From the IMG/VR virus record IMGVR_UViG_2778261696_000003: a stretch of 58,308 nucleotides of DNA, one strand, 5' to 3'. Position 1 is the first letter of the stretch. Each line of letters starts with the position of its first letter. Source of the stretch: a virus. Taxonomy: Duplodnaviria > Heunggongvirae > Uroviricota > Caudoviricetes. Shown here one piece after another: positions 1 through 16,603 of the stretch. The notes below the pieces were generated by a model. The model was not told where the DNA came from. It worked only from the letters and a program-made list of their open reading frames with translations, and made no database searches. Made by a program: the position numbers and the translations under genes.

Positions 1-49
1 TGAGACCATTAAAAGAGGCGTCAGAGGCAGAAAACGTTGCTTAACGTGA
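1..49 (+). CDS. tnpA: Tn3-family transposase, 3' end (partial; gene continues left of window, stop codon inside the terminal repeat)
   Basis: Open frame from window edge to TGA at 47-49, ending inside the 38-bp Tn3-type IR; Tn3-family tnpA genes typically terminate within the IR. No homology search possible. Confidence 0.4.
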   Translation, partial: ETIKRGVRGRKRCLT

Positions 50-77
50 GTTTTCGTTCCACTGAGCGTCAGACCCC
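40..77. mobile_element. Tn3-family 38-bp terminal inverted repeat (outer GGGG end at 77; transposon body lies left of window)
   Basis: Reverse complement of 40-77 is GGGGTCTGACGCTCAGTGGAACGAAAACTCACGTTAAG, the canonical Tn3/Tn2 terminal IR as I recall it; flanking bases differ from the bla-proximal end, so this is taken as the tnpA-proximal end. Confidence 0.8.
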
Positions 78-217
78 AAGTAAGAGCAAAATACCCCTGG
101 CTGGTCCCTGTTCATGCCGATGGTGTGGTTGGAGGCAAGAAAGAATTCACCTTGCTGAACAAGTCAGAGATGGAGTTACTGGCTGACGCCTATGAGATGG
201 CAAACATCATGCACTAA
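78..217 (+). pseudogene. Possible 3' remnant of a gene interrupted by the transposon (frame ends ...EFTLLNKSEMELLADAYEMANIMH*)
   Basis: Open frame without plausible start, abutting the IR and ending at TAA 215-217; identity unknown. Confidence 0.25.
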
Positions 218-406
218 TAAATATATTATTTTTAATGATAAATGATTGACAACTGACAAGTGACTTCAGTCAGAATCATCACATGCCCGGTACGGATGGA
301 TCCCTTTTCAAATATTCCATGGACGGCACAGTCTGAGTACCGGGCGCTACCTTCAGTTGTATTGCTAAGCCGCCGCTGGTGGCTTTTCTTTTTTGTAGGG
401 GGCGCT

Positions 407-1048
407 ATGGATAAGAAAATATGCGTTGTTTCGATGAGCGTCGGCAAACCGGCGTCAATGACTGCTGCATGGATCAATAACGAGCTGATAATGGCTGAGC
501 GGACCAGCTACCCTGAACGCCGCCGCGATATGGAACTCCAGCTGCTGCGCGAATTGCGAGAAAAAGAGGAAAAGGGTTTTATCGTGCTGGTGGAAGAGGA
601 AAACAGCTTTATTACTGGTCGAGTTGGCCAGCGTGTAAGGTTGCGCGATCCCTTCATGAACGGCAGGCCGGTACTAATTGAGGCAATGCAGATTTATAAG
701 GAGCTGGAACGCCAGAAAGCAATCAAGTTACCGCGCAAGGAATCCGGCAAATACATTCTCCACCAAAGCATCTTCGATTCCGAACACGATAAAAAAGGCG
801 ATGAATTTTTCAACATCAACTGGAGCGAAATAACGACAGAGCATGTTCTGACGTTACTATGTTGCTTTGCGACGGAATACAACAACGTTGCCAGCGCCGA
901 CTACATCAGGGCAATGGCTGGAGAAGTTGAGGCCCGCCAAGAACCATCGTTACTAAGTCCACTGATTAACATAATTCTGGGCACCCAGATACTGGAACAA
1001 AAAAAAGTGCCGAAAGGGGTATTAACAGGCAAGCATAATTATTTTTAA
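407..1048 (+). CDS. Hypothetical protein, 213 aa (accessory locus, upstream of the toxSAS gene)
   Basis: ORF track 260..1048; ATG at 407 preceded by AGGGGG Shine-Dalgarno-like sequence; co-oriented with and 93 bp upstream of the RelA/SpoT-domain gene; no recognisable motifs. Confidence 0.55.
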   Translation: MDKKICVVSMSVGKPASMTAAWINNELIMAERTSYPERRRDMELQLLRELREKEEKGFIVLVEEENSFITGRVGQRVRLRDPFMNGRPVLIEAMQIYKELERQKAIKLPRKESGKYILHQSIFDSEHDKKGDEFFNINWSEITTEHVLTLLCCFATEYNNVASADYIRAMAGEVEARQEPSLLSPLINIILGTQILEQKKVPKGVLTGKHNYF

Positions 1049-1141
1049 CAATTACATACAGTAATTTTGTGGTTACATTCTCCATTGATTTTCTAACCGC
1101 TTTATCATTAGATGTAACAGCATGTAAATCATTTAAAATGG

Positions 1142-2278
1142 ATGAAAGCAATGGGGAATGAAGTTTATCAAAGTCAAAAATGCAAGTTGAAATATTCAAA
1201 ATCTCAAATTGATAGGGCTGCTCAATTGATAAGGCACGGGTGTAGTGACGAAGAAAGGCAGCAATCTATTGAAATGATACAAAATTTCCGTGAGCTGCAT
1301 CTTTATCCATTAATGCTCATGAAAAATCATTTAGCAAGAGCAGCTGCTAAGGTTGACAAGGACAAAAAGATTCTCGTTGCAAGAAGACTTAAGCGACTTT
1401 CTACCATAATAGATAAACTAGAGCGTCCTAGTCTTGATGGAGGCAGAACTAGCAATGCAATTAAATTAACACGGATGCAGGACGTTGGCGGATGTAGGGC
1501 CATTGTCAGAAACTTAGACCAGTTGATACAGCTAAAGGAACGTCTTTTAAAAAGCAAATCTGTTCATAGGATTGTTAAAGAGTATGATTATCTTACTCCC
1601 AAAGACAGCGGCTATAGTGGAATCCACCTTGCATACAGTTGCTTCGATCAGAAAGAGGATCAATATCCGTGGCGAAAAACAAAGATTGAGATACAGTTAA
1701 GAACTCAATTGCAGCATGCTTGGGCTACCAGCCTTGAAATAATTGATACCCTTGAAGGTATCAAGCTGAAAACTTCAAGTGAAGGGCATCCAGAATGGAG
1801 ACGATTTTTCTATCTAGCCGGATGTCTTGTAGCGCACGACGAAAAAGCCTGCACTCTTGATGAGCTAGTTGTATCTCAGTATGAAGGCGAGCTTAAAGAG
1901 CTGGAACGGACTTTATCTGTACGGAGGAAACTAAGCACATACACCATCGCCTTAAATTTAACTTCTGACGCGAATTTGATTAAGAAGTTGCCAAAAAATC
2001 ATAAGGGGCATTACTTAGTAACAATGAGAAATGCAGAAAACAAGCCCAATACAAAAAACAAAAAAATGTTCCTAGTGTCTGTTCGCGCATTTAAAACAAA
2101 AGAAGCAGATGAAGCCCTTGAGGCCTTAAATAAAGACGATTCTAATCCTAATGTATTGATATCTGTTCTCGTTGCTACAGATAACATTAAGTCACTAAAA
2201 AAAGCCTACCCCAACTATTTTGGCTCAACAAACCAGTTTACAAAATTCTTAGATAAGCATCTTCGTAACGAAGGATAG
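1142..2278 (+). CDS. Fused toxSAS-type toxin-antitoxin (CapRel-like): N-terminal RelA/SpoT nucleotide pyrophosphokinase domain plus C-terminal extension
   Basis: 378 aa; RSH synthetase motifs visible: RRLKRLSTIIDKL...MQDVGGCRAIV and GYSGIHLAYS...KIEIQLRTQLQHAWATSLE; about 100-aa C-terminal extension; lies where P1 carries res/mod (recalled map). Confidence 0.75.
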   Translation: MKAMGNEVYQSQKCKLKYSKSQIDRAAQLIRHGCSDEERQQSIEMIQNFRELHLYPLMLMKNHLARAAAKVDKDKKILVARRLKRLSTIIDKLERPSLDGGRTSNAIKLTRMQDVGGCRAIVRNLDQLIQLKERLLKSKSVHRIVKEYDYLTPKDSGYSGIHLAYSCFDQKEDQYPWRKTKIEIQLRTQLQHAWATSLEIIDTLEGIKLKTSSEGHPEWRRFFYLAGCLVAHDEKACTLDELVVSQYEGELKELERTLSVRRKLSTYTIALNLTSDANLIKKLPKNHKGHYLVTMRNAENKPNTKNKKMFLVSVRAFKTKEADEALEALNKDDSNPNVLISVLVATDNIKSLKKAYPNYFGSTNQFTKFLDKHLRNEG

Positions 2279-2286
2279 TTGCTTAA

Positions 2287-2311
2287 TTTTGCCCGGTAAT
2301 TCCGGGCAAAA
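2287..2311. terminator. Perfect inverted repeat hairpin (TTTTGCCCGG-TAATT-CCGGGCAAAA) between convergent genes
   Basis: 10-bp arms read directly from sequence; no U-tract after the stem on either strand, so it may be a binding site rather than an intrinsic terminator. Confidence 0.3.
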
Positions 2312-2314
2312 TTG

Positions 2315-2563
2315 TCAATCTGCATTCAGGAGCAATGCGTTATCTATGATGATCTGCTCCCATTCTTCGAATGCCCGATCGCGGACGCCCTGGGGAACAC
2401 TGTTAGTTTTGAAATCGACCACCGTCCGCCATTTTCCGTCAGGACGGTACATGCGCAGAGCTTTACTTCCCCCTTCCCTGCGCACCTCAACGTTATGCTT
2501 ATCAGCAAACTCTTGTAATGCTCGTAGCGTCCCATGCTTTACTGTGTAGTATCGCTTTTTCAA
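2315..2563 (-). CDS. lxc: Lxc-like small protein (C1 co-repressor/Bof), 82 aa
   Basis: Position downstream of ulx-like and darB on the same strand as in P1; size matches recalled P1 Lxc. Synteny only. Confidence 0.45.
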   Translation of the reverse strand: MKKRYYTVKHGTLRALQEFADKHNVEVRREGGSKALRMYRPDGKWRTVVDFKTNSVPQGVRDRAFEEWEQIIIDNALLLNAD

Positions 2564-3000
2564 GTTTTCTCTCCAGCCTGTGCTAAGGCTTCAACTTCCA
2601 AATCGTAAGACTCAAACTCATAGTCCTGGTCGTCAACCTCTTCAGGCACTGGCAGTAAATGCCAGGCTGAGTATATCTGACCATTATCAAAACGCTCCTG
2701 GCTGTAGAGCGTCGCGGCTATGAGTGTTAGCGCCGGGCGGTCATAACGGTAAATTTTGCGAACGTCACGGTCAACGAGACGACCGAAATTACCATAACCG
2801 CGCTCCAGTAATAATTTTTTAATTTCCGGCCAGTATGGACCATAGCTGCGGTACAGGCGGGGATTTTTCAGTAATCGCCCGCGTAGCCCTGACAGGAAGA
2901 AATCAACGTATTCGTCTTCTGTCTTTCCTAACAACGCTGTACGGAGTACCGCCTCAAGATATGTTTTATTCGGTTTTATTGTATCAGATAGTGTGGCCAT
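2560..3000 (-). CDS. ulx: Ulx-like protein, 146 aa
   Basis: Immediately downstream of darB, 4-bp overlap with next gene; synteny with P1 darB operon. Confidence 0.45.
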   Translation of the reverse strand: MATLSDTIKPNKTYLEAVLRTALLGKTEDEYVDFFLSGLRGRLLKNPRLYRSYGPYWPEIKKLLLERGYGNFGRLVDRDVRKIYRYDRPALTLIAATLYSQERFDNGQIYSAWHLLPVPEEVDDQDYEFESYDLEVEALAQAGEKT

Positions 3001-14306: not shown

Positions 14307-15101
14307 ATGACAGCACAAAATACTAAAACCATTCAATACCGCCTGCGTAATGGCCAGAGTGTAGAAGTGACCATCAATAATGATGGTGTACCTGGCGAAA
14401 AGGTTTCGATCTCTGATCTGGCTATCGAAAAAACCATCATGTGCCACCTTGGCTTTACTGAAGAAGTGAGCAAAAAGCATGGTGTAGCTATCTGGCGCAC
14501 AATGGATACTGGCATGCGCAGATTCATTACTGCTCGTACCCCTGGTATGACCATGATGGACCTCATACAGATTGCGCCGCTGTTTGAGTGTGAACCTTTG
14601 GATGTATTCAGCAATCCAGCTATCTGCCAGCAGTTATATGGTGAGATGAAACTCGCGGTTACCCCCATTGTGCTGCATGAAGGATCGCTTGCTGGCGTAT
14701 GGAAAGTAGAGCGAATTTCAAGCTACATGCCATTCCACATCCATGTCAACGGCGTAATCGCAGGTGAAAATCAACCTGTTTCCGTTATAAAGTCAGACCT
14801 CAATCGCGCAATTCTTGAAGCAAGTTGTCGAGTTATCGGCCTGGGCAAACAGTCTTATGTTTCCTTCCCGGCTGGTCCTGAAGGCCCGGCAGAAATTCTG
14901 ATTATGGATGCTGATCTGCTCTGGCAAATACAGTTTCTGATTGGCAAAAGCATCATCCGTGCTGAAGAACTCGATCAGTACATTACCTGCACGATGACGG
15001 ATGAAGTCAAAAGTGTGGCTATAGCCAATGCCCGGAACCTGTGTCGTGCTGCATTAACAGAACCGCAAGAAAACATTCCAGAAGAAACAGAAAGTGACTA
15101 A
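14307..15101 (+). CDS. Hypothetical protein, 264 aa (accessory locus between ssb and ddrB)
   Basis: Long ORF with AGAGAAAAG upstream; followed by a GC hairpin; no recognisable motifs. Confidence 0.5.
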   Translation: MTAQNTKTIQYRLRNGQSVEVTINNDGVPGEKVSISDLAIEKTIMCHLGFTEEVSKKHGVAIWRTMDTGMRRFITARTPGMTMMDLIQIAPLFECEPLDVFSNPAICQQLYGEMKLAVTPIVLHEGSLAGVWKVERISSYMPFHIHVNGVIAGENQPVSVIKSDLNRAILEASCRVIGLGKQSYVSFPAGPEGPAEILIMDADLLWQIQFLIGKSIIRAEELDQYITCTMTDEVKSVAIANARNLCRAALTEPQENIPEETESD

Positions 15102-15298
15102 TAAAAACCCCGTCAGTTGGCGGGGAACTCCACGTCAAATGGCCAATTGTTATGTCAGCTAGCAGTTAAAGCGCCTAGTCATCATCTTTTAAAGAAGTCT
15201 TTTTAACTTACCTAAATTAGTGACACCTCCCGTTTTGCTTGCTATTGTACGCATTCATGAATCTATTCATTAATCTATTCACAATAGTAATTAAAACT

Positions 15299-16603
15299 AT
15301 GGCTATACATGCAACAACAATCCGTAATTTGCTCAATCAAGGTCCTATGACACCAAGACAATTGGTTGAAAGACTAGGTGTTAGCCAACCAACGATATCT
15401 AGAGCATTAAGAGATCTTGGTGATGAAATCGTTAGGATCGGAAATGGAAGATCTATTCAATATGCTTTACGAGACTCTTTTAGAGGATTCGAATCAGTCC
15501 CCATTTATCGTATAACTGAAGAGGGGTGTATTTGCGTTCTTGGTACTCTCATTCCGGTGAGGCCAGAAGGCTATGTTATGGTTGAGGAAGGGAAAAATAA
15601 CAGGCATAGCGATGGGTTACCTTGGTGGTTATTTGATATGCGTCCACAAGGCTTCCTTGGAAGAGCATATGCATCAGCATATGCTCTTGAACTTAACCTT
15701 CCCTCAAATCCAGAGCAATGGTCAGATACTGACGTGATCAAAGCCTTACTTAAGCATGGGCATGATGTTGTTGGTAATTTGTTAATTGGAGAGCAAGCAC
15801 GCACGCATTTTTTAGAGATGCAGCCTCCTGTTCCTGTTAATCGTGAAAGTGAATATCCTGTATTAGCTTTAGCTGCTGGTGAAGGTGATGTGCCCGGTTC
15901 ATCTGCTGGAGGTGAACAACCCAAATTTTGTACTTTCACAGAGCGTGGACATGTATTAGTGAAATTCTCTGCGCCTAACGACACCCCTATAAGTGAGCGT
16001 TGGAGAGATCTCTTGTTTGCTGAACATCTCGCATTAAAAGTTCTGGGGGTAGAAACAGAAGTTTTTGATTATAACGGTCAGAGATTCTTGGAAATTCCCC
16101 GATTTGATCGTGTTGGTCAACTAGGTCGGGTAGGTGTATTCTCACTTCGTGCACTTGATGCAGAATTTGTTGGGAATGCAAGAGCAACATGGCCCTTGCT
16201 GGTTAAAGAGTTGGTAAAAAATAAGTGCGTCCATCCTGATGCGATTATTATAGCAACAAGGCTATGGTCTTTTGGTTTGCTAATAGGCAATACCGATATG
16301 CATAATGGTAACCTATCGTTTATTAGTAGCCACGGACGCCCATATCATATTGCTCCAGCCTATGACATGTTACCTATGGGTTTTGCTCCACGCTCTGGGG
16401 GAGCAATATCTAATGAGCTTAGAAAAACAGCACTACCAGACTTTGTAAGTCGAAAAATATGGGATGAATCTCTTGAATTGGCTGAAAAATTTTATGCATT
16501 GGCCTGTGAGTCCGACAAATTCTCAGCTAACTTTACTCCATGTTTAGAAGCGCTACGCATCCACCTAGATGATTGTAAGATACGCATAGCCCGCCTGGCA
16601 TAA
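15299..16603 (+). CDS. HTH-HipA fusion Ser/Thr kinase (YjjJ/HipH-like HipA-family toxin)
   Basis: N-terminal HTH (TPRQLVERLGVSQPTISRALRDL), HipA-like core motifs (QPKFCTF...VLVKF; FDYNGQRFLEIPRFDRV; GNTDMHNGNLSF with DxHxxN catalytic loop). Start uncertain: TTG 15239, ATG 15257 or ATG 15299. Confidence 0.7.
   Translation: MAIHATTIRNLLNQGPMTPRQLVERLGVSQPTISRALRDLGDEIVRIGNGRSIQYALRDSFRGFESVPIYRITEEGCICVLGTLIPVRPEGYVMVEEGKNNRHSDGLPWWLFDMRPQGFLGRAYASAYALELNLPSNPEQWSDTDVIKALLKHGHDVVGNLLIGEQARTHFLEMQPPVPVNRESEYPVLALAAGEGDVPGSSAGGEQPKFCTFTERGHVLVKFSAPNDTPISERWRDLLFAEHLALKVLGVETEVFDYNGQRFLEIPRFDRVGQLGRVGVFSLRALDAEFVGNARATWPLLVKELVKNKCVHPDAIIIATRLWSFGLLIGNTDMHNGNLSFISSHGRPYHIAPAYDMLPMGFAPRSGGAISNELRKTALPDFVSRKIWDESLELAEKFYALACESDKFSANFTPCLEALRIHLDDCKIRIARLA

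Follow-up and report, generated by a model that had tools for sequence, protein, structure and literature searches.

A probable blaTEM-type Tn3-family transposon end in the ref gene of a P1-like phage-plasmid

Introduction

The viral contig IMGVR_UViG_2778261696_000003 (58,308 bp; the window, hereafter, is this whole stretch of DNA at its full length) opens on a short piece of mobile-element sequence abutting an open reading frame that has no start codon. The locus raises three questions: which element ends at the left edge of the window, which gene it has broken, and what would be found to the left of the first base. The window was compared with the genomes of phages P1 and P7, with canonical Tn3-family transposons and with plasmid and Escherichia coli records carrying the same junction. 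The features that define the left edge are as follows.

1-44, plus strand: 3' end of tnpA, the Tn2/Tn3 transposase gene, assigned by 77/77 identity to the tnpA end in P7
40-77, minus strand: 38-bp terminal inverted repeat of the Tn1/Tn2/Tn3 type, tnpA-proximal, an exact match and the sole copy in the window
78-82, no strand: AAGTA, right-hand copy of a 5-bp target-site duplication (P1 2498-2502), read as such in relatives
78-217, plus strand: truncated ref, last 140 bp, codons 142-186 read from window position 80, stop codon at 215-217

Results

A transposon end at the left edge of the window

The 38-bp repeat GGGGTCTGACGCTCAGTGGAACGAAAACTCACGTTAAG has one site in the 58,308-bp window, at positions 40-77 of the minus strand and with no mismatches. 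Dinucleotide-preserving shuffles yielded no match in any of 100 when up to three mismatches were permitted, and a second copy sought throughout the 58-kb window at the same tolerance was not found. In the transposon annotated in P7 (AF503408), both repeats have the sequence found at 40-77, and its tnpA-proximal end agrees with the whole of window 1-77 at 77 of 77 positions. The same 77 bp are present at 100% identity in at least 5000 plasmid records, many of them annotated at this point as 'Tn3-like element Tn3 family transposase'. Positions 3-41 encode the last 13 codons of tnpA, RPLKEASEAENVA, and the TAA stop codon at 42-44 lies within the repeat. Both elements of an earlier sequence-only reading, an exact reverse-complement match to the Tn3 repeat at 40-77 and a tnpA-like open frame running into it from the window edge, are therefore borne out.

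The part of tnpA inside the window itself amounts to these 13 codons. In relatives the frame extends leftward as a 433-codon remnant that contains a complete DDE_Tnp_Tn3 domain (PF01526, full-length, E 1e-148; read in locus L001, a 100%-identical relative). Window 1-77 very probably represents the outermost 77 bp of a blaTEM-type Tn3-family transposon inserted in the non-essential gene ref. The assignment to a P7-type element is drawn from the relatives, in which the 1.3 kb that is kept is, base by base, indistinguishable from the P7 transposon. The window alone does not allow a call between Tn1, Tn2 and Tn3, the diverged element of locus L007 being also identical over the 77 bp. The 58-kb window, with its single repeat, contains no blaTEM, no tnpR/res and no second repeat; these are present in the relatives L006, L008 and L009.

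The broken ref gene and the control region of mat

The sequence to the right of the repeat belongs to ref. Window 78-217 aligns with P1 2498-2637 without gaps and with 138 of 140 positions identical, and the ref coding sequence of P1 occupies 2077-2637 (186 aa; NC_005856). The frame without a start codon, which had been read from the sequence as a gene broken by the insertion, is thus identified by comparison with P1. The break falls inside codon 141 and the first 141 codons are gone, which accounts for the missing start in the 78-217 fragment. Besides the start codon, the fragment lacks the ref promoters P1ref and P2ref and residues 96-136 with their Cys/His cluster. It matches positions 63-102 of 103 in the Pfam family RecA_dep_nuc (PF16786, E 2e-13), compared with positions 1-102 for the full Ref protein; the nuclease domain of the latter spans residues 80-182, of which the fragment keeps only the portion within residues 142-186 (45 codons). 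RefSeq labels the same stretch a partial Ref family nuclease. We infer that the 45-codon tail is a dead remnant, that is, a non-functional pseudogene fragment.

The last bases of the fragment overlap the control region of the downstream gene mat, whose features are:

208-225, minus strand: C1 repressor operator Omat, intact, identical to P1 2628-2645 (NC_005856 annotation)
246-276, plus strand: promoters Pmat and LPmat of mat, intact, identical to P1 2666-2696
296-1048, plus strand: mat (maturation control), coordinates from the P1 annotation, start region identical to the P1 mat start

In the automated annotation of RefSeq (PGAP), mat begins at 407. Window 78-993 displays 96.5% identity to P1 overall, and Omat, Pmat/LPmat and the mat start are base-for-base as in P1, so that the control of mat was left intact by the insertion. 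A promoter and terminator scan of positions 1-1200 returned nothing beyond the P1 annotation.

The target-site duplication

The right-hand AAGTA at 78-82 directly follows the repeat; its left-hand counterpart is beyond the edge of the window. Both junctions could be read in pEF45-2 (locus L006), the EC052 plasmid (L008), pECD97-2 (L009) and the ETEC1720 plasmid (L007), where the order is ...gctgAAGTA-IR ... IR-AAGTAagag. The left junction was also predicted as a chimeric query composed of P1 2381-2502 (which ends in AAGTA), the repeat and the bla-side interior; its expected order is the ref 5' part, ...GCTGAAGTA, then GGGGTCTGACGC. In the plasmid collection, this query was matched over its whole length by pEF45-2 and pECY44-3, two plasmids that also have the right junction of the window. 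The sequence-only reading had pointed to a 5-bp duplication as the mark to look for, and AAGTA is found in the relatives that keep both junctions; its presence on the two sides demonstrates genuine transposition. Replicative transposition would have brought the element into ref of a P1-like phage-plasmid, duplicating AAGTA and splitting codon 141.

The left side in related plasmids is cut by IS26

Two sets of relatives were used, eight plasmid records with 100% identity over window 1-3000 and seven E. coli RefSeq records with 100% identity over window 1-400, which together, once the overlap was removed, comprise 11 distinct plasmids. IS26 is found at an identical distance from the junction in all 11 (loci L001, L004/L006, L005, L008, L009 and L011-L015). 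It truncates tnpA approximately 1.34 kb from the end, leaving codons 569-1001 of 1001 in each of the 11 identical-junction records, a feature read in the relatives only; the IS26 end at the cut is ...TTTGCAACAGTGCC. What remains, 1335 bp, has the sequence of the P7 element throughout and, because tnpA is cut by IS26, is unable to transpose on its own. The other transposon end is kept beside the 5' half of ref in L006, L008 and L009, in the order repeat, blaTEM, tnpR and then IS26, and in the last two the full layout is ref5'-IR-blaTEM-tnpR-IS26...IS26-tnpA remnant-IR-ref3'. In p1540-3, by contrast, the 5' half of ref seems to have been lost through a deletion mediated by IS26.

The DNA beyond IS26 varies from plasmid to plasmid. 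At this place p1540-3 has aph(3')-Ia, strAB, a class 1 integron, aac(3)-IV and aph(4)-Ia, and pE92-3 has bleO and mcr-1.1. In pEF45-2 there is sul2, along with other genes and a tail-fibre segment that has been displaced, and the EC052 plasmid carries aac(3)-IId, lnu(F) and aadA. The earlier proposal that the body of the transposon lies to the left and might carry resistance cargo is thus sustained, since every relative has cargo leftward, with the refinement that the transposon of the relatives is not intact, being cut by IS26 in 11 of 11, and that most of the cargo consists of IS26-bounded modules and not of the transposon itself.

The most likely history would begin with a single insertion of a Tn2-type element into ref. 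IS26 would then have inserted in tnpA, leaving codons 569-1001, and variable resistance modules would later have been gained and lost through IS26 between the two original ends of the transposon. This history agrees with the published picture of P1 subgroup 1, in which IS26 is the dominant driver of resistance-gene acquisition and 'Ref family' appears among the genes that flank resistance regions (Pfeifer et al. 2022, PMC9600943). Judged from the relatives, the source of the window is likely to have the same IS26-truncated left side.

Several of the P1-like phage-plasmids (among L001, L004-L006, L011 and L013) are typed 'IncHI1B' by MOB-suite in PLSDB and others with the same backbone are typed IncY; the IncHI1B call is probably a replicon-typing artefact.

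Contig ends and the mosaic backbone

The ends of the contig and the make-up of its backbone bear on how far the relatives can speak for the source of the window. Two further features are needed here.

58232-58308, no strand: end of IS100kyp (IS21 family) in dmt, 77 bp, the last 77 bp of the window matching records annotated IS100kyp
14307-16603: HipA-family locus downstream of ssb, comprising a 264-aa ORF without a family match and a 454-aa protein

The match to the P1 backbone in the methyltransferase gene dmt stops at window position 58231. Each end of the window therefore consists of precisely 77 bp from a multi-copy element, the transposon on the left and IS100 on the right. We take a 77-bp repeat at both ends to be the signature of a short-read contig assembled with a k=77 de Bruijn graph and broken at repeats. 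An assembly break of this kind would explain why the window starts 77 bp into the transposon, with a left neighbour that is known only by inference.

The first 3 kb of the window resembles the p1540-3 group of plasmids. Plasmids of the pEC18-3 type match it at the HipA-family locus (14.3-16.6 kb) and at the IS100-in-dmt junction; in them ref is intact and the slot between mat and lxc holds another gene pair. The 454-aa protein is annotated in relatives as the HipA-family toxin YjjJ, and the plasmids that share the Tn-ref junction have ompC in place of the HipA-family locus, which makes this a second variable slot. Among the plasmid and E. coli records searched, none combined the Tn-ref junction, the HipA-family locus and the IS100-in-dmt junction, and no database record matched the backbone of the window as a whole. 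On these matches the source backbone is a mosaic, so that the left side of the source could be unlike that of the 11 relatives.

Alternative readings of the junction

Three other readings were weighed against an IS26-cut remnant. In the first, the end is still functional in cis, conferring Tn3 target immunity and allowing the 11-23 kb resistance region to move as a unit when TnpA is supplied in trans. A single Tn3 repeat together with TnpA confers target immunity, both perfect 38-bp repeats surround the whole region in inverted orientation in L006, L008 and L009, and Tn2/Tn3 copies are abundant in the hosts, with matches in 3082 of 5426 E. coli genomes. Against this, every copy found is at the same AAGTA site, which favours vertical inheritance and recombination over transposition; only one repeat is present in the window and nothing points to movement of the compound unit. 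We consider this reading unlikely.

The second reading, implied by the sequence-only analysis, places an intact and transposition-competent Tn2/Tn3 (tnpA-tnpR-res-blaTEM, 4.95 kb) directly to the left of the window. Such elements do exist in ref: the plasmids of the pig ETEC isolates ETEC1720 and ETEC1722 contain a 1001-aa tnpA, tnpR and blaTEM-1 at the same site, with AAGTA on both sides, and in ETEC4085 a complete element lies at another position in ref. However, the ETEC1720 and ETEC1722 plasmids match the first 400 bp of the window at only 98% and have SIR2 in place of the CapRel-like gene, and the ETEC1720-type element differs from the P7 type and from the remnant of the relatives at 15 of the last 1335 positions, whereas all 11 records that are 100% identical at the junction and its flank have tnpA truncated by IS26. 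An intact element to the left is, on this evidence, quite improbable.

That the repeat derives from a cloning vector or an assembly chimera can be dismissed as next to impossible: although the bare 38-bp repeat also matches phiX174, lambda and other records, where it most likely represents vector sequence, and although the window ends are assembly-type 77-bp overlaps, pBR322-type vectors carry the bla-side repeat only and window 1-39 is tnpA-side interior, which rules out vector contamination, while at least 11 complete plasmids, assembled independently, have the identical junction and flanks and a matching left junction with the expected 5-bp duplication exists. The preferred reading remains that of a Tn2-type insertion into ref later cut by IS26.

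The ETEC1720 element itself (L007 4189-12077, NZ_CP122864.1) is 2.6% diverged from the P7 type, mostly in tnpR/res, and occupies the same AAGTA site. At the left junction of L007 only the repeat and 5 bp are kept, followed by a floR segment and then by a second repeat. This element looks like a replacement by homologous recombination and not like a second transposition.

The neighbouring CapRel-type gene

The gene that follows mat occupies the slot between mat and lxc.

1151-2278, plus strand: CapRel-type fused toxSAS toxin-antitoxin, in the mat-lxc slot where P1 has the EcoP1 res-mod genes

The encoded protein displays a Pfam RelA_SpoT domain (PF04607) at residues 79-193, the gene matches PADLOC PDC-S33 (E 8e-86), and across 371 of 375 aa the protein shares 74% identity with CapRelSJ46, the RelA/SpoT protein of phage SJ46. 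The catalytic Tyr155, within the motif GYSG, is conserved. CapRelSJ46 is a fused toxin-antitoxin that pyrophosphorylates tRNAs once a phage capsid protein binds its C-terminal domain, and its Y155A mutant served as a negative-control construct (PMC9712102). By domain content and similarity, the product of 1151-2278 qualifies as a CapRel fused toxSAS protein, in which an N-terminal toxin domain of the RelA/SpoT synthetase type is joined to a C-terminal antitoxin/sensor region, with a predicted anti-phage role. The G+C content of the gene is 38.7%, compared with 47.8% for the window.

The content of the slot differs among P1-like genomes: P1 has res-mod there, L007 and L017 have SIR2, L016 and L019 a YaaC-family pair, and L018 chromosomal genes flanked by IS1. 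The slot therefore looks like an exchangeable site for defence genes. The sequence-only reading had set the insertion beside an accessory defence locus; a CapRel-type gene is indeed nearby, but the target of the insertion is ref and the defence gene is approximately 1 kb away, with mat in between. Nothing links the transposon end functionally to the CapRel-type gene, and the gene in the slot varies among relatives with the same or nearby transposon insertions.

Discussion

ref as a repeated target of insertion

Across the window and loci L003, L010, L017, L018 and L019, the 561-bp ref gene of P1-like elements contains at least five insertion points of Tn2/Tn3-type elements, at P1 positions ~2132, 2278, 2387, 2498 and ~2611. 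The duplications are GTAAA at 2278, where the element is complete, AAGTA at 2498 and TGAAA at ~2611, and the Tn1721 end of SJ46, at ~2609, is 2 bp from the P7 site. In four of the five Tn2/Tn3-type ends tnpA faces mat, and two diverged transposon variants share the identical AAGTA site. It is possible, but doubtful, that ref is a preferred target of Tn3-family elements, perhaps with an orientation bias, and not merely a gene in which they are tolerated. The insertion survey covered ref only, and the same pattern would also fit simple tolerance in a dispensable gene under antibiotic selection. If targeting and not selection were responsible, a local feature would steer the transposase and ref would be the main entry gate of resistance into P1-like phages; candidates for such a feature would be the C1 operators on both sides, AT-rich DNA and the direction of replication.

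The contig belongs to a lineage of P1-like phage-plasmids that come for the most part from Chinese livestock and human isolates, in which the ref locus is the anchor of an IS26-driven multiresistance region. Among the relatives examined, this region contains mcr-1, blaTEM, class 1 integrons and genes for resistance to aminoglycosides and sulfonamides. Enlarged in this way, the genome may be too long for a P1 headful. For annotators, the break of the contig is due to repeats, and resistance genes are to be looked for on other contigs. The acquisition of resistance by P1-group phage-plasmids at few loci, through IS26 and transposons, has already been published (PMC9600943, PMC6906374), and the present finding matters little beyond bookkeeping.

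Comparison with known elements

The Tn-ref junction is already known from public complete plasmids, in which RefSeq annotates a partial Tn3 family transposase beside a partial Ref family nuclease. The same junction is present in p1540-3, pEF45-2, pE92-3/pE94-3, pAH25-2, pHNSD133T1, pECY44-3, pA163_p0, EC052 unnamed4 and pECD97-2. In the literature on the named plasmids only tabular mentions were met (pAH25-2, PMC8546713), and a description of the junction was not found there. Plasmids of the p1540-3 group are 100% identical to window 1-3000 (two records, to 1-400) and share its order of mat, CapRel-like gene, lxc, ulx and darB. They differ from the window in having the ompC locus and a left side that can be read, with IS26 1.34 kb in, and the IS100-in-dmt junction was not seen in this group.

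The closest phage counterpart is the transposon of P7 (AF503408 / NC_050152), labelled Tn3 in GenBank and named Tn2, with blaTEM-1b, by Venturini et al. 2019 (PMC6906374). It has the same 38-bp repeats, is identical over 1335 bp and is similarly located inside ref of a P1-family phage-plasmid with a 5-bp duplication. In contrast, the P7 insertion is ~115 bp further downstream, near P1 2611-2615, with TGAAA as its duplication, and the P7 element is complete, lies in the opposite orientation (bla end toward mat) and alters only the C-terminus of Ref. Site, duplication and orientation thus rule out that the junction of the window is the P7 insertion itself, and the two are independent events.

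Salmonella phage SJ46 (NC_031129) is likewise a P1-like phage-plasmid in which a Tn3-family end adjoins a 3' remnant of ref upstream of mat, and it also has a CapRel gene in the mat-lxc slot. Its transposon, however, is Tn1721, with a different repeat and a position near P1 2609, and its CapRel protein is 74% identical to that of the window. The locus has several features of canonical class II elements of the Tn1/Tn2/Tn3 type: repeats of 38 bp, a DDE transposase gene whose end lies in the repeat, a 5-bp AT-rich duplication and, through the relatives, a tnpR-res-blaTEM module. It differs from them in that the window has only a terminal fragment and that the element of the relatives is disrupted by IS26 and non-autonomous.
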